NCBI RefSeq assembly: GCF_965641715.1
Contig: NZ_OZ282453.1
Origin: Escherichia coli
Lineage (GTDB): Bacteria > Pseudomonadota > Gammaproteobacteria > Enterobacterales > Enterobacteriaceae
Direction: 5' to 3' (one strand)
DNA length: 64,000 bases
Positions 1,470 through 33,230 of this stretch are shown here, in pieces (within the stretch, counting starts at the first letter, position 1; every line of letters starts with the position of its first letter). A program made the position numbers and the translations under genes. The notes below the pieces were generated by a model that worked only from the letters and a program-made list of their open reading frames with translations, ran no database searches and was not told the DNA's origin.

Positions 1470-3698
1470 TTAAATACTCCCCGCGTTATACCACGTCCCA
1501 TTAATGCAATACTGAATTGGCCTTGCCTGAGTTGTATCAATTAATTCATCACGGTTTCCGTTAACTGAACCCGTAACGACATAACCTGACCTGTCAGACC
1601 AGCCGGGACCATTCCATGTCTGAACAGATGACAGACCGCCAAGGCGAATACCTGTAATAAACCTTGAGTTACATTCTGCCTGCGTGTATGCACCAACATC
1701 TCCCGCAGAGGGTTTGCGGGTCGTGGTGTAAAACTCTGACCAGTTAGCCTCAAATCCATAACCATCACGCGCTGAACGATAAAAAATACCGCCGTTCCTG
1801 TAATTCACGCGGAACTGTACAGCAGGGCAGCTCCCCGTATTCATATTGAAGTGGAGGATTAATGTCGATGCACCGCTGATATCTGCATCATAAACACCGC
1901 TATTCCAGTTCCAGCCAACAGCTTTATCATTTGCAACCCTGCTTCCTGTTTGCCCTAAAGCAAATGCAGGCTGCTGGTTTTTCGTGTTGTAGTCTCTTCG
2001 CCAGCCAGGAGCATAAGCATCACCATGATTAATATAAGTGAATTGAGCGTTAGAGGTGCCGCCTCCGGTGGAAGTGCTTGGTGTTGTTACACGGATGGTC
2101 ATGGCACCTTTATTACCCATAACCTCAATAACGCAACCTGCAAGATGAATAGTTCCACAGCCAGTATCGGTAATAATTTTATTATTGCCGTATGACCATG
2201 AACATTTGCACATCCAGTATGGGTGATTGAATGCCCCTTGAGAATCCAGCCATTCAATCAATTGTGCCGTTGTCCAGTTCCCTGCCCCTGTACTAATAGC
2301 ACTGTGAAAAGCGCGACATGCACCAATATTTTTTGTGAAGGTATCTTTTCCTGGAATATCTGCGCCGTTCTGGTTTTTCTGTAATGCGCCAGAAGCCTGA
2401 TTTACCGTTTCTTGTAAACCGAGGTATTCGATAACGGCAGCAACGGTCGATTTCGCAAGAATATCCCGCCCGACTTTTGTCAGGGTTGCCAGGCTGGCGA
2501 CATCATTCCCCGTAAAATACGGAAACCTGTCTGCCGCAGTAGCAAGCCCGGCCAGCGCCGTCAGGGTGGCATCTTTCGGTTGCTTACCCGCAAGCGCGTT
2601 AGTCATGGTGGTCGCAAAATTCGGGTCGTTTCCCAGCGCCGCCGCTAACTCGTTCAGCGTATTCAGTGCGTCAGGTGACGAATCTACAAGGGCGGCAATC
2701 GCAGCCATAACGAAAGCCGTGCTTGCGATTTGGGTATTATTCGTTCCCTGTCGCGCAGTTGGCGTTGTTGGCGTTCCGGTCAGCGCAGGACTGTTTAAGG
2801 GCGCTTTCTTGTTCGTTTCATCCATTACCGCCTTAACCGCTTTCGATGTCGCGGCCAGTGTTTCAGACGTGCTGTTGGTGGCACTACTGAGCTGGACTAT
2901 CCCTTTTTGTGCCGTCGTGGCGTCCTGAGCGGTATATTTTGCGTTAGCAAGGTCATACGCGGCCTTTACTGCTTTCGGCGTTGCAGCCTGCGTTTCAGAC
3001 GTGCTGTTGGTGGCGCTACTGAGCTGAACTATCCCTTTTCGCGCAGTGGTAGCGTCCTGTGCGGTGTATTTGCCATTAGCCAGGTCATATGCCGCCTTAA
3101 CAGCCTTTGGCGTTGCCGCAAGCGTTTCAGACGTGCTGTTAGTGGCGCTGCTAAGTTGAACAAAGCCTTTTGCGGTCAGCGAGGCGTCCGGGTGACGTCG
3201 TGAGTGTTCATGCTCTTTCAGTTTGTCATCCACGTAATCCACTGTGGCCATTACCATGGTGTTATCCACGGTAAGCGCCACGGTGGCAGTGCTGGATACG
3301 GTCAGAATGGTGCGAAATGTTTGTGCACGTCCTGACCCTTCGGCAACGGTTGGCTTGTAACTTTCGGCAGTATTGCCTACTGCGATTAAATCGCCGTGCT
3401 CATCAAACACACCAATTTCCCGGATCCAGAATCCGCCCGTTTCTGGAGGAATAACCAGCTCCGCAATAATGCGGTTCTGATGTGTTGCGTCCAGGATGAC
3501 GCGATTAACAGTGTGTCGCCACACCTCATGCACCAGACGGGTCTGCTTACTGTCTGGTGTGGGCAACGTGCCGCCACCGTCGCCCACGGCCATATGAGTC
3601 AGGCGGACAGGCTTACCATCTGGCGCGGCTGCCTGAGCTAATTTTTTTGCACCCGTATCGGTGATAACGGTTTTAAATTTTCGTGTTGTGGTACTCAT
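1470..3698 (-). CDS. Tail fibre protein (P2 gpH-like)
   Basis: 742 aa; conserved fibre N-terminus, three internal 44-aa repeats ([10 protein letters not shown]...), C-terminus ...[11 protein letters not shown]; sits between gpI-like and assembly genes. Confidence 0.85.
2830..3215 (-). repeat. Three tandem 132-bp repeats (44-aa units) inside the tail fibre gene
   Basis: Motif gtttcagacgtgctgtt(g/a)gtggc recurs at 2860, 2992 and 3124, period 132 bp; protein repeat ...[13 protein letters not shown](L/Q)AATPKAVKA... Confidence 0.8.
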
Positions 3699-5474: not shown

Positions 5475-6052
5475 TGCGGGCCTCCTGTCGAATCGCTGCC
5501 ACCTTTAACGCCACCGTGTTTATGCGTATGCACTGTGATGCCGTTTGAGGTGAAATCGCCGCCGCTGTGCGTGATATTGCCGCTCATCTTTCCCCCTTTT
5601 GTGACGTCAAGCGTCGCTGTTCTCAGAAGGTCTGTGCATTCCACGACAGGCGTGTCCAGTGTCACACTGACGGATGCCTGCAGGGTGGCCGTTTTCATGC
5701 CGCTGGCGCTCAGTGCGCCTGCGTCTGCGTCGTAGCGGAACACCGCGCCATCCGGCGCGCTGACCACGATTTCTTTCAGGCTTTTGCCTGGGGCCGGAAT
5801 GGCATCACTCCACAGGCTGCCAATTATCATGGCGGTTTCCGGGTTGCCGCCAATGCAGGCAATGACCACCTGTTCGCCTGGTGATGGCGGCAGCCACACA
5901 TTGAAGGCTCCCGCGCGCGTGGTGTTCCAGCGCAACCAGCCTGTTTCCAGTTCGCCGCTGCGAACGCGCACGCGCCAGGACTTCTCATCAACTTCAGAGA
6001 TGATCCCGGTGCGGATGATATTGCTCAGTAGCCGCATGAGTTCTGCGCTCAC
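5471..6052 (-). CDS. Baseplate spike protein gpV-like
   Basis: 193 aa; position upstream of W; gpV-like N-terminal fold pattern. Confidence 0.75.
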   Translation of the reverse strand: MSAELMRLLSNIIRTGIISEVDEKSWRVRVRSGELETGWLRWNTTRAGAFNVWLPPSPGEQVVIACIGGNPETAMIIGSLWSDAIPAPGKSLKEIVVSAPDGAVFRYDADAGALSASGMKTATLQASVSVTLDTPVVECTDLLRTATLDVTKGGKMSGNITHSGGDFTSNGITVHTHKHGGVKGGSDSTGGPQ

Positions 6053-6693
6053 CGTACAGCCTCCGCAATCCGGCCCAGCACCGTGTTATAAATCAGGCGC
6101 TCATCTGCCTGGCTGATACCCAGCAGCTCACGTACCGGGTAATCGGTGAAAATGCCCGGCGCAACCTGATCGCGCTCACCGAACTGATGAACGCGTGCAA
6201 TACGTGCGGCCACGCCGCTGTAACCCACCGTCACACCGGAAGCATCTGCACGGGCTTTCAGGTAGCGGGCGGTGCGCAGTTTTACGAACATGGGGACGCG
6301 CCTGGTGCTGTCCTGGTTGATGCGCCGGGTGCGTATTTCCAGAAAGCGGTCGATGTCATCCCGGTAAAACGTGCGGATGCTGTTTTTATCCTCATCCCAC
6401 CCGGTGATGGTTCGCCCGTATTTCCCCGTGTCGTGATGCCAGTTTTTCAGCGTGCGTGCTTCGTTATTCCAGATAAAGCGAATGCGCTCCTGTATCCGGG
6501 TTACGCGGCGTCTGCGTGGTGTCCATGCGGTCCCGTCCGGCGCTTTCTGTGACCGGATGCGCGCCTGCTGGGCGCGGCGTAAATCCTGTGCCAGCTTTCT
6601 GGCGATGTTATTGATGGCCTGCTGATTCAGGCTGTCGCGGATGGCCTCAAAGGTTTCATCCACGCGGGTGAATGCCTTATCCATCGCTTTCAC
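6049..6693 (-). CDS. Phage virion morphogenesis / tail completion protein (gpS-like); start uncertain
   Basis: 214-aa track ORF in the R-S position; overlaps the R-like ORF by 17 nt, so the true start may be internal. Confidence 0.55.
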   Translation of the reverse strand: MKAMDKAFTRVDETFEAIRDSLNQQAINNIARKLAQDLRRAQQARIRSQKAPDGTAWTPRRRRVTRIQERIRFIWNNEARTLKNWHHDTGKYGRTITGWDEDKNSIRTFYRDDIDRFLEIRTRRINQDSTRRVPMFVKLRTARYLKARADASGVTVGYSGVAARIARVHQFGERDQVAPGIFTDYPVRELLGISQADERLIYNTVLGRIAEAVR

Positions 6694-7144
6694 CCCACGT
6701 CACATCCTGGAATACATGCGACCAGTCGCCTTCGGAGGAGGGCAGGCGGGGTTTTGGCTCCGGCAGGTGTTCTGCCTGCGGTGTCCCCTGACTGTTGCGC
6801 GTGATGCGAACGCGTTCCCGCAGGGGGAGCGTAAACAGGAGATCGGCGCTGTCATCGTCATTGATAACGGCGGAAAATTTGATGTCCTGATTACACTCCG
6901 GATTAAGCAACAACTGTGGCTGATTTTCGGATAACCACGCCAGCAGCGGCAGCGTGAGGTCGTCCAGCTCTCCGGCGTAATCCATGACAAACATCACCAT
7001 CTGATAGCGGTAAACAAACGAGGGCGTTTCTCCGGTCGTTTCAATGTTGCCGCTCTCCACGAAAATGGTGAATTTTTCCGGGTTGGCCTGACACCATCGG
7101 CATGAACGGGTCATGGCTTCACGCAGGGAATCAGTTTTCAGCAT
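6677..7144 (-). CDS. Tail completion protein gpR-like
   Basis: 155 aa; MLKTDSLR... and LAWLSENQP motifs resemble P2 gpR as I recall it; no TM segment, so not a spanin. Confidence 0.6.
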   Translation of the reverse strand: MLKTDSLREAMTRSCRWCQANPEKFTIFVESGNIETTGETPSFVYRYQMVMFVMDYAGELDDLTLPLLAWLSENQPQLLLNPECNQDIKFSAVINDDDSADLLFTLPLRERVRITRNSQGTPQAEHLPEPKPRLPSSEGDWSHVFQDVTWGESDG

Positions 7145-7184
7145 GGTTGTTGTCCTCGTTATTCACTTGTTGCAGTTCATGAGG

Positions 7185-7730
7185 TTACAGGGCTACACGT
7201 TCTTTCATCCAGCCATAGACAAACGACTCGTTAGCCTCGCGTTTCTCTGCCAGCTCCAGATAGCGTTCGCCCTGCGTACAGTTCATTGCAGACAACATCA
7301 CCATCTCGCCGTCCCGACCGCGTTTTTCCAGATATGCACGCAATGCGTTAATCGTGCGTGGGCCAGTGCGTCCGTCCGTGTCCATATCGGGATACAGTTT
7401 CCCGCCCTGATTGAATACGTTCAGCCAGCGCTGAAGCATTCTGGTTGCCACAGACGGCCCCATATTTACTCCGGTGTCACACAGTTCTGCGGCAATATCC
7501 GGGGACAGCTTCGCTATCTGATCAAAACGCGGTCCGTACCAGTAATCAGCTTCAAGGATTTCCAGTGCCTGTCCGCGAGTTAAATCACGCATATCGCCAC
7601 GGTATCCGTGCGCCCGTGCCACCTTTTCAGTGATGCCCCATTTTGTCGGACCGCCTCTGTCATCCGGGTGATTGACGTAGCCGCCTTCTTTGCCAAGAAC
7701 GACATCAAAAATTTCGTCTTTCGATTTCAT
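7185..7730 (-). CDS. Endolysin, glycoside hydrolase family 108 with peptidoglycan-binding domain
   Basis: 181 aa; motif GGYVNHPDDRGGPTKWGIT typical of GH108 muramidases; located after the holin. Confidence 0.8.
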   Translation of the reverse strand: MKSKDEIFDVVLGKEGGYVNHPDDRGGPTKWGITEKVARAHGYRGDMRDLTRGQALEILEADYWYGPRFDQIAKLSPDIAAELCDTGVNMGPSVATRMLQRWLNVFNQGGKLYPDMDTDGRTGPRTINALRAYLEKRGRDGEMVMLSAMNCTQGERYLELAEKREANESFVYGWMKERVAL

Positions 7731-7784
7731 TTCGTCACCTCTGTGAATGATTTTTATGGTGATTACCGGCTTTAAGCCTGCGAC

Positions 7785-8108
7785 TTATTCATCTCCCTTT
7801 TGGGTTATGCGGTTAAAGGCGGCAATGATCTTGTCGCGTGCTTTTTCTGCGCCCATAAAACCGATAGATGCGCCGAAAAACGTCACGGCATCTTCAGGAA
7901 CTCCGAAGAAGCGCAACGACCCGGCCACGGCCATGGCAAGAACGCCGCACGCCAGCGATCCCGTTACGGTCTGAACCAGCGTTCGTCCGTCATAAAGACT
8001 CATCAGCGCGGAAATGCTGACTGCCGCGCCTGCTGCATACACCGTTGGCAGGTGGTCAAAGAGCCACGCAATAACCTGCTCTGTGATCCCTGTTTGAATA
8101 GTGCTCAC
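7785..8108 (-). CDS. Holin (class I-like); start proposed at GTG 8108 after GGGGGAG
   Basis: Track ORF 7785-8327 overlaps gene X in another frame; internal GTG at 8108 with upstream Shine-Dalgarno gives a 107-aa product with about three hydrophobic segments. Confidence 0.5.
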   Translation of the reverse strand: MSTIQTGITEQVIAWLFDHLPTVYAAGAAVSISALMSLYDGRTLVQTVTGSLACGVLAMAVAGSLRFFGVPEDAVTFFGASIGFMGAEKARDKIIAAFNRITQKGDE

Positions 8109-8110
8109 TA

Positions 8111-8317
8111 CTACTCCCCCCACAACTGAATCATTTCTCGTTTCTTCTTCTCCGGCTCCGGCATCTCCACGTCCTGCCCGGGGTCCAGAAATACCTGCTG
8201 ACAGAGTCCGGGGTTGGCATCCAGCACCTTTTCGGTGACGCCCTGCGTCGTGCCGTAGTACCGGAAACAGAGCGAATCCACGGTGTCGCCTTCCAGTGCC
8301 TTCACTTTCATCAGCAC
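8111..8317 (-). CDS. Tail protein X-like
   Basis: 68 aa; ...LEGDTVDSLCFRYYG... pattern resembles P2 gpX as I recall it; position between L and holin. Confidence 0.7.
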   Translation of the reverse strand: MLMKVKALEGDTVDSLCFRYYGTTQGVTEKVLDANPGLCQQVFLDPGQDVEMPEPEKKKREMIQLWGE

Positions 8318-8805
8318 AACTCCGCAAAGATTCGCGGTCGTCCCAGAATGTCAGAGATGGCCCAGCTCACATCGCGCCACAAATCCGATGTCTGTATATC
8401 CAGTGCGTCCGCCCGGCGGTCGCCCTTATCCGTTGTGTCCGCATCGCGGTAACGCTCCAGAATCAGGGCGCGTGTGGCGGTATAAACGGCATTGCGCCAG
8501 TGCCAGAGATTGACGCTTTCTCCGTTAATTACGGGTGCCGGAACATCGGCCAGCGTCTGGTGGCCAGCCGCCTGCTGTTCCTGCTGCCACGCTTCCAGCT
8601 CGCGGGTAACGTGTGCCACGGCCCCGGTGGCGGTATGCAGCAGGCGGGAGGTGGTCACACGGCCCGGCAGTCGTATCGCCAGACGCAGCTCACGCAGCAC
8701 AATATCCGGCCAGAATGCGCCCGCTGAAATACGGGTATCACCATCATCGGTATCGGTGATGTCGTCCTCTGCGGGGCCGGGGTTGGTTCTGGCAACCATA
8801 CTCAT
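8311..8805 (-). CDS. Head completion protein gpL-like; start moved to ATG 8805
   Basis: Track ORF 8311-8814 starts at GTG; the ATG at 8805 is preceded by AGGAG; position after M. Confidence 0.7.
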   Translation of the reverse strand: MSMVARTNPGPAEDDITDTDDGDTRISAGAFWPDIVLRELRLAIRLPGRVTTSRLLHTATGAVAHVTRELEAWQQEQQAAGHQTLADVPAPVINGESVNLWHWRNAVYTATRALILERYRDADTTDKGDRRADALDIQTSDLWRDVSWAISDILGRPRIFAELC

Positions 8806-8906
8806 GGGGTTCACTCCTGAAAAAATCGGGCGGTGGGTGCGCGGTGTAAACGGTCACGGAGTCAAACCGGAACACCGTGCACGCCGCCCGCTGACGGGGT
8901 CAGTCG

Positions 8907-9707
8907 TTAAACGCGCTTCGCCTTCTGCGTCGCGGTGGTTTTTCGTGTTGCAGGCTTCCGCGTTGTCTTTTTACTTTTGCTGCTTTCGTCCTGCGCCTGC
9001 TGTGCGCTGGCGTCATCTGGGGCGGCTGCGGAATCGGCTTTTTTCAGGGCGCGGGAAAGGGTTGCAATCTCGCGTTTCACACCTGCGTTCGGGTTCAGGT
9101 GCATCGCTTCGCGCAGCAGCTTCAGTGACAGGGCCATGCTGTCCGCATCGCTCAGGCCACGGCGGGCAAAGGCGCACGCCTTGCATAATTTGGCGCGTAC
9201 TTCGTCCGGCATATCCTGGTCGGTGACAATCTCCCGGAGGGTGTCCAGTGGTTCGATAAAGGCGGACAAATCCGCGTCGGCATCCGTCCCGGCCTGCGTC
9301 AGTACCGGGTTGCAGATTTCTTCGGTCAGCACTGTGGCAGCAGTACGGCCAAAGTTATCCGGCATGATGAGGTTGTGACGGACCACATACGCACCAATAC
9401 GCAATGCCAGCGGAAGATCGCCACAGTCAATCGCCCACACCATCAGCGTGGCAATCACCTCATCCTGCTGCCCGCCGTCAGCCTCCAGCGTTCCTTCAAT
9501 CCAGCCAGAAAAGTCCGGTAACAACTCTTTTTTGATGGCGGCTTTGGCGCTTCTGGCCTGTACGCCCTTAAGTCGGGCCTGTGCCAGACGCAGACGATAC
9601 AGCACCTCTTCATGCGCGGTACGTGCGGCGTGATCCACGCCTTCATTCGCCCGGCCTGCGCGCTGCGCCATCACGTTCTGCCAGTGTTGCTGTGCAGGGG
9701 TAATCAT
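8907..9707 (-). CDS. Terminase small/endonuclease subunit gpM-like
   Basis: 266 aa; position between N and L as in P2. Confidence 0.75.
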   Translation of the reverse strand: MITPAQQHWQNVMAQRAGRANEGVDHAARTAHEEVLYRLRLAQARLKGVQARSAKAAIKKELLPDFSGWIEGTLEADGGQQDEVIATLMVWAIDCGDLPLALRIGAYVVRHNLIMPDNFGRTAATVLTEEICNPVLTQAGTDADADLSAFIEPLDTLREIVTDQDMPDEVRAKLCKACAFARRGLSDADSMALSLKLLREAMHLNPNAGVKREIATLSRALKKADSAAAPDDASAQQAQDESSKSKKTTRKPATRKTTATQKAKRV

Positions 9708-15141: not shown

Positions 15142-15498
15142 ATGGAAATGAATATGAAAACTGTAACTGATGATGAATTTCGTGAGAACCTGAGTGAAAT
15201 TCTGGATTACCTTTCTTCCGGTGGCAGTGTCGTTATCACGGCGCAGGGAGGGAAGGATGTTGTTCTTGCTGGTTCTGATCTTAGTCCTGAAATACGGGCT
15301 GTCCTTGGCAAAACCAAAAAACTGCGGGATCAAATAAACAAAATGAAGCAACCACTCTTAATAAATGCAGTGAGAGATCTGGAAAAACGTCATCCAGCTC
15401 TTGTCGCACAGAGAAAAAAAGGATTGTCTTTTGAAGATGCAATGAAGCGTACAAGAGAAAAACATGCGGATATCATTAAAAAGCTTGAGGATAACTGA
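15142..15498 (+). CDS. phd: Phd/YefM-family antitoxin (118 aa, C-terminally extended)
   Basis: N-terminus ...KTVTDDEFRENLSEILDYLSSGGSVVITAQGGKDVVLAGSD has the Phd/YefM pattern; stop overlaps the doc start (ATGA at 15498). Confidence 0.7.
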   Translation: MEMNMKTVTDDEFRENLSEILDYLSSGGSVVITAQGGKDVVLAGSDLSPEIRAVLGKTKKLRDQINKMKQPLLINAVRDLEKRHPALVAQRKKGLSFEDAMKRTREKHADIIKKLEDN

Positions 15499-15905
15499 TG
15501 GACATAGTGTTTTTGTCAAAAGAACAAGTAGAACGTATCCATGCTGAAACTTTACCCCAGAGCGGAAATGCCAATGACGGGCTACTTGAAGGTGCTTTAA
15601 ATCGCGTCAGGACACTACACTACTATGAAGGGGTTGATGATATTCATGCTCTGGCTGCTATGTATTTGATTGGTATAGCCAAGGCTCATGCCTTTCATGA
15701 TGGGAATAAACGCACAGCTTTTCAGGCTGCATCAATATTTTTAATGATGAACTCTTCCGAACTTTCAAACTCCCTGCTGCTGGTTAAATTAACGGTGTTT
15801 TCAGCAATGGGGATAGCTACCCTTGAGGAAGTTACCTTTGCTTTGAAATTGCTGTCTGATTATGGCAATGAATTAATCAGCGACTACGAAGAAGATTATA
15901 TTTAA
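15498..15905 (+). CDS. doc: Doc-family toxin (Fic fold)
   Basis: 135 aa; Fic/Doc signature HAFHDGNKRTA present; coupled to the upstream antitoxin. Confidence 0.85.
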   Translation: MDIVFLSKEQVERIHAETLPQSGNANDGLLEGALNRVRTLHYYEGVDDIHALAAMYLIGIAKAHAFHDGNKRTAFQAASIFLMMNSSELSNSLLLVKLTVFSAMGIATLEEVTFALKLLSDYGNELISDYEEDYI

Positions 15906-16071
15906 TGCTGGCATACTCTGTCGTGTTAAGACAACAGCCTTTGCGGAGACAGGGCAGGGTGCCAGACTTGCCCGCAGCGCGTCTGACATGAGCAGTTATT
16001 CATCTTTTTTATTGTTTTTCTCCATGCAGGGCGACAGTGCGCCCCGATAAAATTAAAAGCCGTCAAATTCG

Positions 16072-16407
16072 TCATTCATGCGTTTTTTCTTCATGGTCTG
16101 TCACTTCTCTCCTGATAACTTCATTGCACAAATCAACGCACTCATTGCAGATGTAAACAGACGGTCCGGCAATCACCTTTGTGACTTCGTACTGGGATTT
16201 ATTGCAGAAGCTGCAATAAATCGTCTCCTCACCTGAAGTCCATGTTTTGCTGGTTTCGCCAGACATCAGTTGTTTGAGGTCTTTTTCACGACGAAGAACT
16301 ATCTGGCCACATTCAGCTATTTTTTGGATGTTGACATTTTCTTCTTTCGCCAGCGCTTCCATCCGCTCAATCAGTCGCTGCGCTTTTTCTCTGTCAATGC
16401 GTTGCAT
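16072..16407 (-). CDS. Small protein with C-terminal ClpX-type C4 zinc-binding domain
   Basis: 111 aa; C-terminus [36 protein letters not shown] matches the ClpX N-domain (LYCSFCGKSQHEV...YICDECVDLCNDII); N-terminal half predicted helical/charged. Confidence 0.7.
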
Positions 16408-16470: not shown

Positions 16471-16782
16471 TTATTCGGGAAATAACGCCCGGATATTTCC
16501 GGCCATCTGACTGGTTATCTGTGCGGTTGATACTGGCTGTGACGCGGGGCGTTCTGTCCTGGTTTGTGTCACTGATAACGCTTCATCATCAGCCCATGCA
16601 GCCAGTCGGTAAGCCTCTGCCGGATTCATTTTCAGAAGTGCCAGCCCGGCCAGAAAAGCCACGCGTTGGCCGCTTTTGCGCGCTTCTGGTGTAAGGCTGT
16701 CCAGCCAGGCGCATGCTTCACCTTCGTTCTTGACGGCGGCGGGCTTCAGATAGAAACTTATCCGTCTGGTTGGAGTCGTCAT
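16471..16782 (-). CDS. parR: ParR-like DNA-binding partition adaptor; start at ATG 16782
   Basis: 103 aa from MTTPTRRISFYLKPAAV...; aligns with what I recall of R1 ParR (RRTIAFKLNPDV...LDS...AGLAL); ATG lies 5 nt after the parM stop, with AGGAG upstream. Confidence 0.55.
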   Translation of the reverse strand: MTTPTRRISFYLKPAAVKNEGEACAWLDSLTPEARKSGQRVAFLAGLALLKMNPAEAYRLAAWADDEALSVTQTRTERPASQPVSTAQITSQMAGNIRALFPE

Positions 16783-16786
16783 TGGT

Positions 16787-17746
16787 TTACTCCTTGTCCA
16801 TTGCGTACAGCCCATTAACCAGAGCAAACTGTGGCACCCCGTCCGCGATGAAAGTCGCATTAACTCCGCAGGCTTCGCGGATAGCGGGTGCCACAATCTC
16901 CGCCCCGCCACCGACAACCATCACCCGCCCGTAACCCGAAAAAACCGCCAGCGCGCGGATCACGCGTTGTTTCAGTGTTTCTTCCTTTTCACGAATAACC
17001 GCCATCAGGCTGGCGTAATGCGCGTCATTGTGGATGTGCTGGCGCAACCAGGCTTCATCATGGCGATGTTCGATAATGGTATTGGCGATGTGGTGACTGA
17101 TACGCATACCGTTAGTGGCCATCACCGACAGTACGGCATCGGCCATCAGGGAAACGCCTACGTGTGGATCGCAAAACACCTGGCTGATACCTGCCAGTTG
17201 CCCCTGAACCTTTGCCACATCCAGTGTGGTTCCGCCCAAATCCACAATCAGCAGGGATTCAAGCGGACTCATGTCAGCCAGTGCTTTAAAGCCAGCCGGA
17301 ATGGATTCAGGCATAACCCGTACGTTACGGATAGTGAATGTTTCGCCGTTCTGGTACTCCACCGGGCGCATAACGTTCGCTTTTTTGCGGCTGATGTTGG
17401 CCATGTCCGGCTGTGCGTTTGTGTCGAAATACTCGCTCAATGGCAGGGTGACAACCACATCCACCTCCTGTGGCGTGATGCCTGATTTGACCAGCGCGTG
17501 ATGAATGGCAATGACATTCACATCGCTGTACTGGTATTGCGTGTCGGTCGTCTGGACAAAGCGATCGCTGACCGGATCAAAACCATAGCGCACGCCATCA
17601 AGCATGTAGTTCGCGGGCTGCGAGCCACCGAACGGCGCAGACCATTCCGACTTGAAGCTGTTCGGGCTGATGGCGTTGCGGCGTTCGCCGTTCTCAGTCC
17701 ATGCCAGCTTGATGTTGGTGGAGCCGTCGTCGATACAAATTTTCAT
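16787..17746 (-). CDS. parM: ParM/StbA actin-like partition ATPase
   Basis: 319 aa; MKICIDDGSTNIKL..., ISPNSF, YSDVNV, KKAN, FTI.NV.VMPESIPAG, DLGGTTLD and VMV.GGGAE blocks parallel plasmid R1 ParM. Confidence 0.9.
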   Translation of the reverse strand: MKICIDDGSTNIKLAWTENGERRNAISPNSFKSEWSAPFGGSQPANYMLDGVRYGFDPVSDRFVQTTDTQYQYSDVNVIAIHHALVKSGITPQEVDVVVTLPLSEYFDTNAQPDMANISRKKANVMRPVEYQNGETFTIRNVRVMPESIPAGFKALADMSPLESLLIVDLGGTTLDVAKVQGQLAGISQVFCDPHVGVSLMADAVLSVMATNGMRISHHIANTIIEHRHDEAWLRQHIHNDAHYASLMAVIREKEETLKQRVIRALAVFSGYGRVMVVGGGAEIVAPAIREACGVNATFIADGVPQFALVNGLYAMDKE

Positions 17747-17890: not shown

Positions 17891-20645
17891 TTCCACTGGT
17901 CAGGCCACCCCGCAGCAGGTCTGCTTTGCGGCTGGCGCGTTCAGTGGTTTCACTGATTCTCTGTGCGTGCTCTGCGTCGCGGATGGCGCGCAGCATGTCA
18001 GAAAGCACGGTAACGGGTGTTTTCATGGTGTTCTGGTCCTGCTGAAGTGTGGATGCCAGGCGTGCGGCGGCTTCAGGGTCTGATGCCCCCAGCTGTGCCA
18101 GATAGCTGGCGACCGGGTTATGGCGGATCTCCGTGCTGCTTACGCCATGATTACGGCTCAGGCGCTGCCAGAGCTGCGTGATTCGGCTGTCCGGGCGGGT
18201 ATCCGGTTTGCGTACAATTTCAAATCCCTGCGGTGCAATGATGCTGCCGTCAACGTACAGACTGCCGCCCCGTAACAGGTGCTGCATCTGTTGTTCACCG
18301 ATATGCAGGCCGAGAGATTCAGCAGACTCCCGCCATTCTTTAGCGAGTAATTCGTGGTTATCAGGCAAAGGCCGTGGCTGTTTGCGGCTCTGTGTCCAGC
18401 TCTGCATTTCATCACTGCTGTTTTTTGCCTGTTTGTCACGAAGCGAACGCATCAGCGCCCGGCGTTCGTGCCGTTTCAGTGAGCGCATCCATTCGTTCAC
18501 GTCAACGCCGTCAGGAAGCTGCGGCCACGGTGCTGGCCGTTCTTTCGACTGTTCTGTCCCGCTGTTGCCTGTTTCCTGTACACGGGGACAGTTATTGCCA
18601 CGAGTCCAAGGGGCGGCAGGGCCGCCCTGAAGGTCAAAACCATTTTCGCGGGCGCTGTCTTCCGTTTCCGGTTTACGTCTTACCAGTTTCCAGTTATCCG
18701 GATGCGTGCACACACGGGAGGATTCCCCGATGAGTGGTGACCAGATCCCGTAAATCTGTACGCTCTGTTCGCCGTAATCATTCAGCTCATCTGCGAGGTC
18801 GTAGGCGGTGCGAATCAGGTAGTCTTTGCGTGGAACAAGTACGCCGCCCTGTTTTTCAATGTAGGTGGCAAAACACCCGGCATCGGCGGCAGCGAGTACC
18901 GCATCCATTGCGTCATCTTTCAGTCGTTGCGGGCCTTCCGGGTTGCGTGCCATCTGGCTGGCAAGGCGGCGCAGTTCACGCCACACCTGACGGGAGGGGA
19001 TGCCAAAGAACTGGAACTGGCGGACCCGATGAAGGCGCGCCCAGCCGATGGCGCGCTCCACACTCTCGGCCATTGATTTTCCGGTTTCGTGGTCAACGCG
19101 TGGCTTGCCCGTTTTCGGGTCGATGCCATCCACGGCGCGGCTGTCCAGGTTCTTTCCGATGTAGGTCGCGATATAGCTGGTTGGTGTGCCTTTTGAGCCG
19201 TCGACATACTCCGCCTTAAAGCGCGGAGTAATATCATTGCCCAGCTCGTGGCGGTCTTCCTGAATGGCAATATCGCGGGTGATGGCCACGATGCTGTCGA
19301 TTTCTTCCGGATGAGCAAAGACCATCATATGCCAGTGCACGGTGCCGTCATGGTGAGGCTCCACCGTGCGGATGCCATACCAGCGAAGACCGTCGCGGTT
19401 CAGTTTTTTGCGGACCGCCGCAAAAAACGTGTTAACCAGGTAATCGCTGGAGTCGCGCATGGTGGCCCCGTTCCATTTGGGATTCGGATGACCGTTCTCT
19501 GTTGTGGCGTGGTATTTTGACGGGCAGGTGACAGTCAGAAACACCGCTTTGTCGCCACGGGCTTCGGCCAGAAGTTCCAGCCCCTTCATGGTGGCCATCA
19601 TTTCTGCCTTACGGTGAACCGGGTTACTTACTCCCGCGTAATACACCGTCTCGAGATCAATCGTGAACCCGTCTTCATTTTCCAGCATGAAACTTTTCAG
19701 GAAATCGCGTGTTTTCTCGCGCTGTGCGCGAAACTCGCTTAACGCGTCCTGGCTCAGATAGGGCGATGTTTTTCTGGAAACCAGACAGGCGGCGCGGAGT
19801 TGTTCTTCTCTCCACTCGCAACGTAACAGCCACAGTTTGCGTTTCCACCATTCTGCACAGGTCAGGCGAAGGATTGCGCCCGGCAGCAGCTCCGTGTCCG
19901 GTTCGTTCCTCTGGTCTTTGTCTGTTGTCAGTGCGTCATAATGTGGAGGCATGGCGTGCAGGTGTAACGCCATGCGGGCCAGCATCTGATACGCCTTCAG
20001 CGTTACATCCATGGTCAGTTCGCCATCGGTCGCGCCAAAGCCATCGCAGAGTTTTTCGAAGGTGCTGCTGAACATCGCCGCCGTCATGGTGGCCAGTGTC
20101 TGTATCTGGTGTTTGTTGAGCTGCGGCAGGTAAAGCAAATCGTCCAGGCGTTCGCGTCCGGCAAGGGAGCGATAACCCTGTGTCAGCCAGCGGTGATCGG
20201 TGCGCTCCAGACGTTCGAATATTTTGCGCAGGTTTCCGCGCGCGTAGCGTTCAGCCTGCCAGCTCTTTTTGCCTTTCTGACGATCGGCTTCCTGTTTTTT
20301 GCGCAGGAAGGAGAGGTGGCGAATAAGCGGATCGCGCAGATAGGACGGCAGCAGGCGCAGCGAGGCCATGGCTTCATCCACCGCGCCGCGTGCCTGTTTT
20401 CTGGCATCTCCTGCCAGTGTGATGGTTTTGTCCTGTTTTTCCTGTGCGTCCAGGCTTTTATTAATCAGGTTGCCCAGCGGCGTTGCGGAGAACGCCGCAT
20501 CAGCCATTTCCTGGCGGTGCTCGTTCTCTACCCGGTAGGCATCCAGCCAGGAGGAAAGCGCGGATTCAGGAGCGGGGATCCCCGTTCCTTCACGCCCCAC
20601 TGCGTGGCGCGGTTGTTGCCAGTCCCTGATGTACTCTGCCGTCAT
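17823..20645 (-). CDS. Replication initiation protein (P2 gpA-like rolling-circle endonuclease)
   Basis: 940 aa; P2 A position; HUH-like motif ...HHDGTVHWHMMVF...; translationally coupled to the upstream 121-aa ORF. Confidence 0.65.
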   Translation of the reverse strand: MTAEYIRDWQQPRHAVGREGTGIPAPESALSSWLDAYRVENEHRQEMADAAFSATPLGNLINKSLDAQEKQDKTITLAGDARKQARGAVDEAMASLRLLPSYLRDPLIRHLSFLRKKQEADRQKGKKSWQAERYARGNLRKIFERLERTDHRWLTQGYRSLAGRERLDDLLYLPQLNKHQIQTLATMTAAMFSSTFEKLCDGFGATDGELTMDVTLKAYQMLARMALHLHAMPPHYDALTTDKDQRNEPDTELLPGAILRLTCAEWWKRKLWLLRCEWREEQLRAACLVSRKTSPYLSQDALSEFRAQREKTRDFLKSFMLENEDGFTIDLETVYYAGVSNPVHRKAEMMATMKGLELLAEARGDKAVFLTVTCPSKYHATTENGHPNPKWNGATMRDSSDYLVNTFFAAVRKKLNRDGLRWYGIRTVEPHHDGTVHWHMMVFAHPEEIDSIVAITRDIAIQEDRHELGNDITPRFKAEYVDGSKGTPTSYIATYIGKNLDSRAVDGIDPKTGKPRVDHETGKSMAESVERAIGWARLHRVRQFQFFGIPSRQVWRELRRLASQMARNPEGPQRLKDDAMDAVLAAADAGCFATYIEKQGGVLVPRKDYLIRTAYDLADELNDYGEQSVQIYGIWSPLIGESSRVCTHPDNWKLVRRKPETEDSARENGFDLQGGPAAPWTRGNNCPRVQETGNSGTEQSKERPAPWPQLPDGVDVNEWMRSLKRHERRALMRSLRDKQAKNSSDEMQSWTQSRKQPRPLPDNHELLAKEWRESAESLGLHIGEQQMQHLLRGGSLYVDGSIIAPQGFEIVRKPDTRPDSRITQLWQRLSRNHGVSSTEIRHNPVASYLAQLGASDPEAAARLASTLQQDQNTMKTPVTVLSDMLRAIRDAEHAQRISETTERASRKADLLRGGLTSGNKKQTETGFTNPINEQKTCRDI

Positions 20646-20651
20646 AGTGAT

Positions 20652-21017
20652 TTACTTCGTCATGCCATTCAGGGTGTCGCGGCAGACTGTAGCCAGCCGC
20701 TGAATTTCCAGCACGGTGTCTTCTGTGTCGGCATGGCGATGTGTGATGCGGATGCTGTCGGCAATCACATCGACGATTGCAGAGGATGGGCGCTGGTAAA
20801 TGCCAATAACGGACGGGGTGCCACCTTCAATGCGGTAAAGCCTGTAATTTCCCTCGTGGCTGTCAATCATGTAGCGACCATCAATAACAATCTTTCCGTC
20901 AGCGAGCTGCGGTACAGGCAGGGATTTCAGGTACATGTCATAACGATCACGCACGCGAGCGGCAAGATCACGTTCTGTGTTGAGCAGGTATTCAAGAAAG
21001 TCGTTGGCGAGAATCAT
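20652..21017 (-). CDS. Hypothetical early protein
   Basis: 121-aa ORF with ATG and upstream AGAGGA; ends 7 nt before the A start. Confidence 0.5.
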   Translation of the reverse strand: MILANDFLEYLLNTERDLAARVRDRYDMYLKSLPVPQLADGKIVIDGRYMIDSHEGNYRLYRIEGGTPSVIGIYQRPSSAIVDVIADSIRITHRHADTEDTVLEIQRLATVCRDTLNGMTK

Positions 21018-21089
21018 TGCGGCAATCCTCTTGTTACAGATGTGCGAAGGCCTCCCGCCGCAAGGTGCAGGAAAGGCCCGGAACAGGAG

Positions 21090-21320
21090 TTAATGGAGTT
21101 TGTTTTGCTGCTGGATGAGCTGTTGAAGCTCGTGCAGATCATCCGCCAGATAGCTGAAAACAGAGGCGGAATAAATGTTTGATAGTGCGTGGCTGCGCTC
21201 ATGCAGCATATTGATGTGCATGATTTGCGCGACGCGTGATGCGCGGGAAAGTCTGCGGTTGATTTCAGTCTGGATGTGACGACGCTCCGCGATAGCGCGG
21301 TGTGGTTTGCGGTTTGCCAT
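21090..21320 (-). CDS. Hypothetical basic small protein
   Basis: 76-aa ORF (MANRKPHRAIAERR...); preferred over the overlapping low-complexity 205-aa ORF in another frame. Confidence 0.4.
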   Translation of the reverse strand: MANRKPHRAIAERRHIQTEINRRLSRASRVAQIMHINMLHERSHALSNIYSASVFSYLADDLHELQQLIQQQNKLH

Positions 21321-21642
21321 GGTGTGGCCCCTTGTGTAGTAAGTTGTGAAAACTCACCATCCAGAGCTGCGAAACTGTGGGTGGCGAGACGTACGAGGTT
21401 CGCAGTACCGGCTACACAAGAACCCGGCCCGACCGAAGTCGGCCCCGTACGCCCCGCCATAATTCTGACGCGAAAAAAACGTGGCAATACAGTACGCACA
21501 AAAAAACCGCTGGCGCGGTTGTGCGCTTGTGTAGTCAGCAGGCTGCGAAACCCGGCACCCGTTTTGTGAGGTGCAGCGGAAATGTAACCTGACTGATTGC
21601 GGCATGGCAAGCGGTTTTTTTGTGTGTGCATGTTCTGGTTTC

Positions 21643-21942
21643 TTAGTGGTTCAGAAAAAAATCAAAAACCTTGTCAATGCGTTGCAGCAGCTCTTGCTGT
21701 ATTGCTTCCGGCGTTTCCGGTTCGCCTGGCGCCTCCAACGTCGCGCAGAAATCCTCGATTTCATGACGGAGCGTCAGGCGAATGGCGAGAGGTGTGGTTC
21801 TGGCGTGCTCCAGCTCATCCAGCAGCGCCAGCACAGCAGACGGCGAGAGCATTGCGCGAAACGCCAGTAATTTTTGAGGCGTTGCCATTCGTTGCAGGTC
21901 AGTCGCCAGTTCGCGTAATTCCTGGTGGTTGATGGCGCTCAT
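21643..21942 (-). CDS. Hypothetical early protein
   Basis: 99-aa ORF; start overlaps the stop of the upstream ORF. Confidence 0.5.
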   Translation of the reverse strand: MSAINHQELRELATDLQRMATPQKLLAFRAMLSPSAVLALLDELEHARTTPLAIRLTLRHEIEDFCATLEAPGEPETPEAIQQELLQRIDKVFDFFLNH

Positions 21943-22184
21943 GCTCTGGCTTCCTTCAGTAGCTGGTTAAACATGTTGGTAAGTGGATTGCCGCACCCGA
22001 ACGGCATCGGGTTTATCTGGTAAGAAAAGCGACCGCCTGTTTTGCGCTCTTTTCTTATGACTGAACCGCTGCGCCAGAGTCGGCGTAACTCCGCATTAAT
22101 GGCTGTGGTTGGGGTATTCAGTGCTGCGGCGATTTCTCCACCGCTACACCCCGGATTGGCGGCGATATAGTCCAGAATGGTCAT
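21939..22184 (-). CDS. Hypothetical early protein, possibly a winged-helix DNA binder
   Basis: 81-aa ORF in a coupled chain; weak HTH-like pattern. Confidence 0.45.
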   Translation of the reverse strand: MTILDYIAANPGCSGGEIAAALNTPTTAINAELRRLWRSGSVIRKERKTGGRFSYQINPMPFGCGNPLTNMFNQLLKEARA

Positions 22185-22384
22185 CTGCGTGACTCTTGTA
22201 CCTGTCGGATAAGGTTCACCCGCACCACATTCGTGGCGCAGAAGTAAGTGCCGTCAGTGAGATAGATGTGATGTGCATCCTTTTCTGAACGGTGTTTGTC
22301 GATTGTGGTAATCAGGCGTTCGTCGACTTCGTATTCACGCCCTCTGGAGGTAAAACGAACGACAGGAAAATGCTTAATTGCCAT
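22181..22384 (-). CDS. Hypothetical early protein
   Basis: 67-aa ORF, coupled to the downstream gene. Confidence 0.45.
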   Translation of the reverse strand: MAIKHFPVVRFTSRGREYEVDERLITTIDKHRSEKDAHHIYLTDGTYFCATNVVRVNLIRQVQESRR

Positions 22385-22469
22385 TACGCCTCCTTGGCGT
22401 GTGCGAATACCTCCGCGAATGCGGATTGTTTTACATTTTCTTATTTAATCTGTGGTTTTATTTGCTCTG

Positions 22470-22583
22470 TTATTCGCCAGTGAAAAAGCGTTCAATCTTT
22501 TTTATTGAATGAATAATTCGCATAATCCCAATAGCGCAGGCCACCGAAATAATCAGAACAAGCCATGAGATAAATATACTCAT
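22470..22583 (-). CDS. Unannotated 37-aa hydrophobic peptide (MSIFISWLVLIISVACAIGIMRIIHSIKKIERFFTGE)
   Basis: My own translation; ATG overlaps the stop of the upstream 81-aa ORF (ATGA); one predicted TM helix plus a basic tail; below the track length cutoff. Confidence 0.35.
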   Translation of the reverse strand: MSIFISWLVLIISVACAIGIMRIIHSIKKIERFFTGE

Positions 22584-22825
22584 GCGATATTCCCCAGCTT
22601 ATACGGTTCAATATGTTCCCCGCACTCTGCGGCACAGATCAGCTCGGAAAGTTCGTTAAGTGCATCCAGATCATCAGCGTAAAAAGCCACGTCATACAGA
22701 CTTCGGATTGCTCTGGTCAATGAGTCACGGGCCGCACGTTCAGCATGAGCGCCTGATGCACTTAAGCGAAAATAAAAACGCTCAAGTGCTTTGTTAATGA
22801 GAGTTTTATATTCTTTGCCCATCAC
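22580..22825 (-). CDS. Hypothetical early protein
   Basis: 81-aa track ORF. Confidence 0.45.
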   Translation of the reverse strand: MMGKEYKTLINKALERFYFRLSASGAHAERAARDSLTRAIRSLYDVAFYADDLDALNELSELICAAECGEHIEPYKLGNIA

Positions 22826-22833
22826 AACGCCCT

Positions 22834-23121
22834 TTAATCTGCTTTCTGTATTTCAGCTTCTGAATCCATACAAATAATTTCGATATAGGGTTCATCGCCA
22901 TTAACCTGGCGTGCCTTTTCAGCTTCGCTAATGATTTCTCGTACGGTCTGGTACGGAAGTTCCACAAGCAGTCGCGTGCCGTTCAGATAAACGTAAGTGG
23001 CTTCGTCGGCTCCGTTTTTACCCGCCGGAGTTACTCCGTCAATAGCGGATGCACGTAATAACAGTTCACCGCGAAAATCAATAAAACGGATAAATACACC
23101 TTGTGCATGGTCTTTGGTCAT
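22834..23121 (-). CDS. Hypothetical early protein; start moved to internal ATG 23121
   Basis: Track ORF 22834-23235 overlaps the upstream gene by about 100 nt; the internal ATG removes the overlap. Confidence 0.4.
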   Translation of the reverse strand: MTKDHAQGVFIRFIDFRGELLLRASAIDGVTPAGKNGADEATYVYLNGTRLLVELPYQTVREIISEAEKARQVNGDEPYIEIICMDSEAEIQKAD

Positions 23122-23131
23122 AAAGCACCTG

Positions 23132-23473
23132 TTATAAATCAGCCTGTTTAATAAAACTTTGCCCGCGAAGCAGACGATCAACCGTGCGAAGTGCTTCGTA
23201 TAATGTGAAATCCTGCCCGAACTGATTGTCGCCACTGCTTAGAGCAAAAATGCGGTTTCCGGTAAACGGATTGCGTGGGCATTTGTGGATCACGATTCCA
23301 GCTTTCTCAATCAGCCAGGCATGCTCGCCGATTTGTTTTACTGGGTAGCCATCCGGCGTTGCATGTGTATCACTCAGGCTGTAGCGGATGTTGCTGCGTG
23401 ATGCACTGGTAGCAAAACGGTTAGCGTGGCGTTCTGCACCATTGCGAAAGCGTGAATTACGTTGCTGTTTCAT
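23132..23473 (-). CDS. Hypothetical early protein
   Basis: 113-aa track ORF. Confidence 0.45.
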   Translation of the reverse strand: MKQQRNSRFRNGAERHANRFATSASRSNIRYSLSDTHATPDGYPVKQIGEHAWLIEKAGIVIHKCPRNPFTGNRIFALSSGDNQFGQDFTLYEALRTVDRLLRGQSFIKQADL

Positions 23474-23474
23474 G

Positions 23475-23582
23475 TTAAAGACTCTGTACAGATTTAATTA
23501 TTCCGGCATAGAGGCCGAACTCAAAATATTTGCGATTAAATCGCATCGCATTGTTTTCACGTTTTGCGGACTGCTGGTTCAT
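23475..23582 (-). CDS. Unannotated 35-aa basic ORF (MNQQSAKRENNAMRFNRKYFEFGLYAGIIKSVQSL)
   Basis: My own translation; GGAGG 8 nt upstream of the ATG; its TAA stop lies 1 nt before the ATG of the 113-aa ORF. Confidence 0.3.
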   Translation of the reverse strand: MNQQSAKRENNAMRFNRKYFEFGLYAGIIKSVQSL

Positions 23583-23725
23583 TTTCGTTTGCCTCCGCAC
23601 ATGAGAATTGCGCCGCTTAAGAGGTAACCGAAGTTAATTGATAGTATTACAATTAACATAAGGTCCAATTTGTCCATGCCACACATAATTACCCTCATTG
23701 CAGTAGTTGCGGGTTGTCAGGTTTC

Positions 23726-23932
23726 TCACCCGATAAACCAGATAACAAACGCTATAAACATCGCCCCAATAGCTGCCGGGAAAAGTCCTTTGGTATAAGC
23801 GGCGATATATTCAATGCTGAGTTCAATAAAGCGTTCTTCATGTCCCGTTAACTTGCGAAACAAATAGATCTCTATTACGCCTATCTCAATAAAAACAAGG
23901 GTCAGAATGGCGCTGATGATATGGCTGGTCAT
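23726..23932 (-). CDS. Small membrane protein
   Basis: 68 aa with two hydrophobic segments; immediately downstream of cox. Confidence 0.5.
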   Translation of the reverse strand: MTSHIISAILTLVFIEIGVIEIYLFRKLTGHEERFIELSIEYIAAYTKGLFPAAIGAMFIAFVIWFIG

Positions 23933-23938
23933 TTATGA

Positions 23939-24226
23939 CTAAAGTCCCAGCCACAACAACCATGCGTCGCGGCGTTCTTTCGGTTGCTCAAAAAACGCTT
24001 TGCGCATGCCTTCGTTAAATGCTGGCAGATATACCCAGTTTTCTGATGCACGCGTCTTTACTGAACCTGGTTTCACAAAGTCAATTGTCGGTAGCTTTGC
24101 TGCGTCAATCATGGTTCTGACTGTGGATTCCTTGCGGCCGATCATCTTGGCGAATAGTTGATATGGCACCGCTTCAAGTGGATATGGTGCTACCTGAATG
24201 AACCCCCCAAGCTCTGATTCGCTCAT
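23939..24226 (-). CDS. cox: Cox-like regulator/excisionase
   Basis: 95 aa; PYQLFAKMIGRKESTVRTMID...LPTIDFV...NWVYLPAFNEG...RDAWLLWLGL parallels P2 Cox as I recall it; divergent from C. Confidence 0.8.
   Translation of the reverse strand: MSESELGGFIQVAPYPLEAVPYQLFAKMIGRKESTVRTMIDAAKLPTIDFVKPGSVKTRASENWVYLPAFNEGMRKAFFEQPKERRDAWLLWLGL

Positions 24227-32779: not shown

Positions 32780-33230
<451 letters not shown>

Follow-up and report, generated by a model that had tools for sequence, protein, structure and literature searches.

A lysis cassette in an Escherichia coli prophage, in which a holin and an endolysin gene are followed almost at once by a tail gene, raises the question of whether its spanins are truly absent and, if so, whether the cassette was built without them or has lost them. 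Spanins are viewed as the obligatory third lysis step in Gram-negative hosts, and the need for them outside the laboratory has hardly been tested. The cassette lies in a 64,000-nt stretch of DNA, referred to here as the window. A preliminary, sequence-only reading of it had noted that holin and endolysin are followed after 40 bp by an R-like gene, at the place where P2 has its spanin genes (order Y, K, lysA, lysB, lysC, R). The coordinates and Pfam identities agree with this layout, and the P2 record agrees with the gene order.

Lysis cassette and prophage

The six-frame list of open reading frames (ORFs) and the Pfam matches concordantly give a minus-strand late (O-type) operon with the order L, X, holin, endolysin, 40 nt, R and S (Table 1). 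The 40 nt separate the endolysin stop codon (TAA, 7187-7185) from the start codon of R (ATG, 7144-7142). The tail proteins X, R and S share 98.5%, 98.7% and 98% of their amino acids with those of phage Shae_phiSM, R and S over their full length.

Table 1. Features of the lysis cassette and of the adjoining late genes, with positions in the window.
Feature	Position	Strand	Match or remark
L (head completion)	8311-8814	minus	PF05926
Tail protein X	8111-8317	minus	Phage_tail_X PF05489, E = 7e-20; stop TAG 8113-8111; directly upstream of holin
Holin, 107 aa, GTG start	7785-8108	minus	Phage_holin_3_1 PF05106 (lambda S family), E = 5e-19
Endolysin, 181 aa	7185-7730	minus	Glyco_hydro_108 PF05838, E = 1e-26; PG_binding_3 PF09374, E = 4e-25
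Diverged, apparently recombinant patch, endolysin 3' end	7185-7310	minus	21 mismatches in last 126 nt
Junction, 40 nt	7145-7184	minus	stands in for the 541-nt spanin interval of relatives
lysC (o-spanin) remnant, last 15 codons, 45 nt including stop	7131-7175	minus	in frame with endolysin
R (tail completion), intact, 155 aa	6677-7144	minus	P2_Phage_GpR PF06891, E = 1e-39
S (tail completion / virion morphogenesis), intact	6049-6693	minus	Phage_tail_S PF05069, E = 1e-27

The holin reaches 69 bits against PF05106 (cutoff 23.8) and matches PHROG 126 (holin/anti-holin; 3e-33), with a score of 51.2 against TIGR01594 that is slightly under the cutoff of 55.05. Its family match, small size and TM-like segment are those of a lambda-S-type holin, and the protein (WP_000104344.1) is identical between the spanin-less prophage of strain RM10740 and the spanin-bearing one of O111 9662. 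The endolysin scores 93.4 bits for PF05838 (Pfam gathering cutoff 21.2) and 88.1 bits for PF09374 (cutoff 24.6); it matches PHROG 315 (endolysin) and, under the model's cutoff, the NCBIfam holin-associated muramidase. It is soluble by sequence, with no TM or hydrophobic segment, signal or SAR segment, and carries at residues 15-18 an EGGY motif, which we take to be catalytic. A PDB sequence search aligns it with Sen1395 (6V3Z; E = 1e-111) over 179 amino acids. Catalytic domain, EGGY motif, PG_binding_3 domain and lack of a SAR or signal segment are the sequence features of GH108 (the N4 gp61 family), and the protein is predicted to be an ordinary soluble GH108 muramidase without a secretion signal. 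The sequence-only reading had set a GH108 muramidase against a T4-type lysozyme: the GH108 part is borne out by Pfam, but "T4-type" is only approximate, as P2 K, which has no Pfam match, is lambda-lysozyme-like, that is lambda-R-type, in a PDB sequence search (1AM7, E = 5e-44).

By megablast against phage genomes, the late region is 97-98% identical in nucleotides to Shae_phiSM, P88 and others, all Xuanwuvirus. Of 37 Shae_phiSM proteins compared, 31 have a full-length match in the window, mostly at 95-100% amino-acid identity and in the same order, and two more match partially. These matches identify the prophage, part of which lies in the window, as a Xuanwuvirus (P88-like Peduoviridae), for which P2 is the wrong yardstick. 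The visible late and replication genes are full length and 95-100% identical in amino acids to those of Shae_phiSM, the exceptions being DUF2570, which has no match, and H, for which 408 of 672 residues align at 87% and the distal part is divergent. Shae_phiSM is not taken here as a proven functional P2-like phage, because PhiSM has been described as a siphovirus (J Bacteriol 2019, C. rodentium phages). The prophage adjoins pdxB (integrase at ~24.7-25.8 kb, pdxB start at 25.9 kb); the left end of the window falls within it, in an invertible tail-fibre segment, so that this copy's genes for sheath, tube and tape measure of the tail, as well as D and ogr, would lie beyond the window start.

Several features of the prophage outside the lysis region were observed in passing. 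The apparent invertible segment spans positions 1-1467 and 1470-3698. H, intact with 742 aa, and a gene for tail-fibre assembly (934-1467) are on its minus strand; they are faced on the plus strand by alternative versions of the assembly gene (375-905) and of the fibre C-terminus (66-374). The tail-fibre invertase is expected slightly beyond the window; in the RM10740 copy, an IS66-family element is inserted in H instead. A toxin-antitoxin pair (Phd/YefM-Doc) and a zinc-finger protein of the ClpX type, both according to the RM10740 annotation, occupy a cargo slot between the portal gene and parM/parP (15142-16407), where Shae_phiSM and ETEC1730 have other cargo. ParM/ParR-like plasmid-partition genes (16471-17746) adjoin the replication endonuclease, likewise in other Xuanwuvirus members. 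Compared with RM10740 (L004), the early and regulatory region (18000-24000) is a mosaic with 2-6% divergence per kb, and the late region is identical. The C repressor and its Shae_phiSM counterpart are only 47% identical. These comparisons suggest that the same late module is combined with another type of immunity. In the chromosomal flank (32862-33135), extra short blast HSPs indicate about three tandem copies of a unit of ~91-94 nt, against one in RM10740.

The spanin interval of relatives and the junction in its place

The closest relatives with a GH108 endolysin, Citrobacter phage Shae_phiSM (OR565851) and the prophage of E. coli O111:H8 9662, are 97.5-98% identical to the window and carry 501 extra bases at this point. 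Their gene order, holin, GH108 endolysin, DUF2570, LysC and R, defines a subgroup that includes Shae_phiSM and ~32 complete genomes, O111:H8 9662 among them. In P88 and most E. coli prophages the order is holin, M15-peptidase endolysin, DUF2570, (LysC) and R; GH108 is a normal module alternative within Xuanwuvirus, P88 itself having the M15 peptidase. DUF2570 is a protein of 135 amino acids with an N-terminal transmembrane domain (MKLWTSLGVAFLLIAAWGTSM), and its gene is overlapped by that of LysC, which has the lipobox LLTGC. The two match the PHROG "Rz-like spanin" families 214 (1e-40) and 3001 (3e-25), and the spanin genes of the relatives also match PHROG 456, "Rz-like spanin". Because of the N-terminal transmembrane domain, the overlap and the PHROG matches, we regard DUF2570 and LysC as an overlapped i-spanin/o-spanin pair. 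From the stop of the endolysin gene to the first codon of R, these relatives have 541 nt and the window has 40 nt, a net loss of 501 nt.

No counterpart of this pair was recovered in the window. A scan of every ATG, GTG, TTG and CTG in the six frames of 6600-8330 gave 132 start sites, none followed by a lipobox, and the only TM-like segments in these frames belong to the holin and to one antisense ORF. With the spanins of relatives as queries, tblastn against the whole 64 kb matched nothing but the C-terminal end of LysC, left as a remnant at the junction (E = 2e-5); Shae_phiSM DUF2570 has no match in the window, and neither DUF2570 nor the Rz-like protein of Yersinia phage YpM41 matches significantly anywhere in the 64 kb. 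No o-spanin lipoprotein was found on the phage coding strands of the window or of the complete spanin-less ETEC1730 prophage (L005). The same lipobox scan recovers LysC (…LTLVLLTGC|AGTQ…) in the spanin-bearing L003 and L019. Beyond the lysC remnant there is accordingly neither an o-spanin, nor an i-spanin, nor a homologue of either, as a two-component system (Rz/Rz1, LysB/LysC) would have; a unimolecular spanin of the T1 gp11 type was likewise not found, since the lipobox scans of the window and of the ETEC1730 prophage gave no lipobox ORF for it. As for a disruptin of the phiKT gp28 type, the window holds no extra ORF beyond those of spanin-bearing relatives, and the junction is only 40 nt long. 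The claim of the sequence-only reading that no spanin pair is embedded here thus withstood the all-frame search of 6600-8330, tblastn and the lipobox scans.

Some candidates were considered and set aside. The sole lipobox-like ORF (8935-9378, plus strand), antisense to gpM, is not a replacement spanin, because it is also present in spanin-bearing phages. A hypothetical protein of 135 residues, the length of DUF2570, in the cargo slot of ETEC1730 is soluble in translation, with no transmembrane domain. A "truncated" DUF2570 of 115 residues on 252 contigs, which might have pointed to recurrent spanin decay, is only a gene-calling difference, as the DNA retains the normal ATG start. Opposite the endolysin gene lies an antisense ORF of 156 codons (7113-7583, plus strand) with an N-terminal hydrophobic segment, SVFSMVVVLVIHLLQFM, whose codons lie on the strand complementary to the junction and to the beginning of R; the ORF is thus junction-created. 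It is probably spurious, because no promoter motif was found nearby.

The junction, GTAGCCCTGTAACCTCATGAACTGCAAC, consists of 9 unique nucleotides (CCTCATGAA, 7184-7176) followed by the lysC remnant, and occurs in two variants, CAACAAG and CAACGAG; no promoter or terminator motif was found at it. The remnant has 3 mismatches in 31 nt to L003 and P88, contains the Shine-Dalgarno sequence GAGG of R (7157-7154) and overlaps the first 14 nt of that gene. It shows that the ancestor of the cassette had spanins, and the spanin-less state is hence derived. Because the nearest relatives hold holin, GH108, DUF2570 (Rz-like), LysC and R, the gap is best read as a specific 501-nt loss that left a lysC remnant and not as a different ancestral design. 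Endolysin and lysC share a reading frame in relatives, and in the window the endolysin stop is followed by the remnant in frame; this in-frame nature of the loss may be a coincidence.

The endolysin gene itself differs from the spanin-bearing allele unevenly, with 4 mismatches in the first 420 nt and the remainder concentrated in the terminal patch. The differences are mostly synonymous, those in the patch amounting to 6 amino-acid changes at the C-terminus. The patch is 92-94.5% identical to GH108 alleles of lambdoid prophages and of plasmids of ~47-51 kb, versus 87% to the Xuanwuvirus allele. A one-step simple deletion from an L003-type sequence was rejected, the flanks of the junction being too diverged (mismatches at 21 of 126 nt and 3 of 31 nt). 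Because of this divergence we adopted a model of a recombinant patch with an illegitimate join, and the most economical course of events would be recombination with a second GH108 gene, the right end of which was joined illegitimately inside lysC. Exact-pattern scans of IMG/VR, JGI metagenomes and GTDB species representatives returned no match for a donor of the patch or for further carriers, and among the blastn matches listed no E. coli allele ending in ERVAL occurs outside the five carriers described below.

Most probably, then, the locus is a P88-like (Xuanwuvirus, Peduoviridae) late-operon lysis cassette from which the overlapped spanin pair, consisting of an Rz-like subunit (DUF2570) in the inner membrane and an Rz1-like lipoprotein (LysC) in the outer membrane, was removed by a derived event. 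This event would have exchanged ~627 bp, beginning ~126 nt before the end of the endolysin gene and stopping 45 nt short of the end of lysC, for ~135 bp of diverged sequence from the 3' end of a GH108 gene, most likely that of another prophage, with an illegitimate join inside lysC. The endolysin ORF survives the net loss of 501 nt, as do the start of R and its ribosome-binding site; with these intact, the O operon should still express the tail genes R and S.

Spread of the spanin-less allele and competing explanations

Among 5426 complete E. coli genomes, 1153 contain related sequence. The 66-nt junction is rare, with five carriers in the 5426: RM10740, from a feral pig in the USA, and four ETEC strains from Belgian pigs. 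This corresponds to ~0.4% of the genomes with a P88-like late region and to 5 of the 37 of GH108 type; all complete-genome carriers with a stated host come from pigs. The exact junction-linked endolysin protein, ending in ERVAL, is found on 716 contigs, against 325 for the commonest spanin-linked GH108 allele, and in all 10 independent assemblies sampled the holin gene is followed by the GH108 gene and then, 40 nt further on, by R. When 11 spanin-less copies are compared, the core, which reaches from the 3' end of the holin gene as far as the junction, shows 0-1 differences, in contrast to mosaic flanks in which as many as 206 positions differ over 6.5 kb (up to 3%). The prophages occupy two attachment sites, on the pdxB side in the window and RM10740 and on the btuC side in the ETEC strains, with different integrases. 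Window and RM10740 differ by a single mismatch over positions 5-18 kb (13 kb), although their chromosomal flanks differ by 1-2%, which indicates that the allele has moved between strains recently, apparently by infection or recombination. We also observed two spanin-less P88-like prophages, L016 and L017, on one E. coli chromosome (GCA_019297365.1, NBJA01000001.1); they have 144 differences in 6.5 kb and an identical lysis core, and R is uncalled in one copy, consistent with a 1-nt frameshift.

Sister copies are damaged in various ways, with IS66 in H (RM10740), IS100 and IS66 (ETEC1730) and a frameshifted R (L016). In view of this damage, much of the spread could reflect host clonal expansion and recombination between resident prophages rather than infection. 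Exact-pattern scans found the junction in neither IMG/VR viral contigs nor JGI metagenome contigs, and for this reason there is no evidence of free virions.

That the gap is an artefact of assembly or sequencing has a negligible probability: the same junction recurs in the five complete genomes and the ten independent assemblies, with two point variants, so the layout does not arise from assembly. Spanin loss might instead be one lesion in a decaying, non-transmissible prophage, with a distribution produced by vertical inheritance, sampling of pig clones and gene conversion between co-resident P88-like prophages. The IS insertions in the RM10740 and ETEC1730 copies and the frameshifted R of L016 would fit such decay, as would the opportunity for gene conversion offered by two copies in one genome, the lack of a match in the viral (IMG/VR) and metagenome (JGI) collections and the pig origin of the complete-genome carriers with a stated host. 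Against it, the late genes of the window are all full length from Q/P to H/G, the 13-kb block is conserved across strains with 1-2% flank divergence, two attachment sites are used with different integrases, and the lesions vary among copies and therefore postdate the spanin loss. Decay as the whole explanation is possible but rather unlikely.

It is quite improbable that spanins are provided in trans by co-resident prophages. E. coli genomes usually carry lambdoid prophages with Rz/Rz1, and the ETEC carriers possess a second GH108-bearing prophage; the 64-kb window, however, holds no other prophage or spanin, and foreign spanins sit behind the late promoters and antiterminators of other phages and would be silent under a P2-type, Ogr-dependent programme unless co-induced. 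A different phage factor could also disrupt the outer membrane, be it the C-terminal patch of the endolysin or an unrecognised disruptin-like small protein. About 13% of phages of Gram-negative hosts are without recognisable spanins (PMC6139136) and phiKT employs a cationic peptide instead (bioRxiv 10.1101/515445), and here the loss coincides with the 6 amino-acid changes in the endolysin C-terminus in an allele that, with its 716 contigs, is evidently successful. We nevertheless consider such a factor very improbable: there is no gain, the 40-nt junction being without an ORF, the C-terminal changes are conservative (…WMKERVAL versus …WIKERVAA) and neither cationic nor amphipathic, the holin is the same as in spanin-bearing relatives, and the remaining gene set matches that of the spanin-bearing Shae_phiSM. 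Another disruptor, trans-complementation and a simply dead prophage are each without positive evidence.

Expected lysis and relation to known systems

Under the preferred reading, a derived removal of the spanin pair, lysis can be sketched by analogy with lambda and P2. Upon induction, the lambda-S-type holin would permeabilise the inner membrane, and the soluble GH108 muramidase would next degrade the murein; these first two steps should run normally, because spanin-bearing relatives have the identical holin and the endolysin is ordinary. No phage protein would then fuse or disrupt the outer membrane, and virion release would rely on mechanical or chemical fragility, with lysis delayed, or halted at the spherical-cell stage, where divalent cations stabilise the outer membrane. 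Lambda Rz/Rz1 nulls lyse when shaken and arrest as outer-membrane-bounded spheres with millimolar divalent cations (PMC6139136), and the annotation of the P2 record lists lysB and lysC as nonessential and as influencing lysis timing. Because these mutants behave so, the expected phenotype is a conditional, less efficient release, in which the outer-membrane step would depend on shear or low divalent cations. The distribution data suggest that such conditional release is compatible with continued spread. A fully infectious spanin-less Peduoviridae lineage, which breaches the outer membrane in an unrecognised way or for which spanins are dispensable or counter-selected in the pig or animal gut (for instance if a host defence senses them), is improbable; if true, it would offer a ready natural setting in which to study the role of spanins beyond laboratory culture.

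With removal of the spanin pair as the preferred reading, the locus is a cassette of a well-known type in a form that has lost genes, mechanistically ordinary and with no new mechanism. Its value lies in an unexpectedly wide, mobile distribution that makes it a convenient natural test of spanin importance. The natural comparators are of isogenic grade, separated by one 0.5-kb event in a late operon that is otherwise 98-100% identical, and the spanin-less form is present in hundreds of assemblies, at two attachment sites and in diverged strain backgrounds; the fitness cost of lacking spanins can therefore be measured directly, in a host with easy genetics. The case also warns annotators that an absent spanin in a P2-like prophage can be real and not a gene-calling failure.

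Among known systems, the cassettes of Shae_phiSM and O111:H8 9662 are the closest, sharing with the window the order X, holin, 54-nt spacer, GH108 endolysin, R and S at 97.5-98% nucleotide identity; they differ in that DUF2570 and the overlapping LysC are present and the 3' end of the endolysin gene is without the diverged patch. P88, the type species of Xuanwuvirus, has the late-operon backbone, the holin family and the DUF2570/LysC 3' end beside R in common with the window, but carries a Peptidase_M15_4 endolysin in place of GH108 and has kept its spanins. In P2, too, the lysis genes (Y-K-lysA-lysB-lysC) lie between X and R in the O operon and lysC overlaps the R start, whereas the holin belongs to PF04550, the endolysin K is of the lambda-R type, and lysA and the spanins are present.

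The endolysin also has relatives in other settings. It shares the GH108 and PG_binding_3 architecture with muramidases of the Sen1395/TtsA class (PDB 6V3Z, 6V40), Sen1395 being the depositor's name. That class is presumably linked to TtsA-type toxin secretion; the endolysin gene of the window, in contrast, stands in an ordinary phage lysis cassette. In a lambdoid prophage of E. coli SA31-1 (L007, 2556-3800), we observed a GH108 endolysin gene followed directly by a strong terminator-like hairpin and, past it, by three small ORFs, two with TM segments and one coding for a lipoprotein of 70 amino acids (…LLVGC); they may represent a set of spanin-like genes that are separated in this lambdoid setting. 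In Yersinia phage vB_YpM_41 (L008), the record of which annotates every gene as hypothetical, an Rz-like i-spanin of 92 residues (3098-3376; PHROG 1026, 6e-32) overlaps the stop of the GH108 endolysin gene.

The functional equivalent of a holin and endolysin without spanin is found, by analogy, in the lambda Rz/Rz1 null mutants; these are laboratory mutants, whereas the allele of the window is natural, persisting and spread. Our literature search found no published description of this spanin-loss variant, and the list of spanin-less phages in Table 10 of Kongari et al. 2018 (PMC6139136) includes no P2-like phage. Another apparently spanin-less case proved to have nested spanins (bioRxiv 10.1101/2024.01.23.576932). 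The naturally spanin-less phages (Kongari et al. 2018; phiKT with its disruptin gp28) resemble the window in having no recognisable i-, o- or u-spanin. Those listed, however, are whole lineages without a trace of spanins, at least one with a substitute protein, whereas in the window the remnant is proof of a recent loss and there is no substitute gene. As read from its DNA, the cassette thus differs demonstrably from the known spanin-less cases: the loss is recent, a remnant is left and no gene was added.
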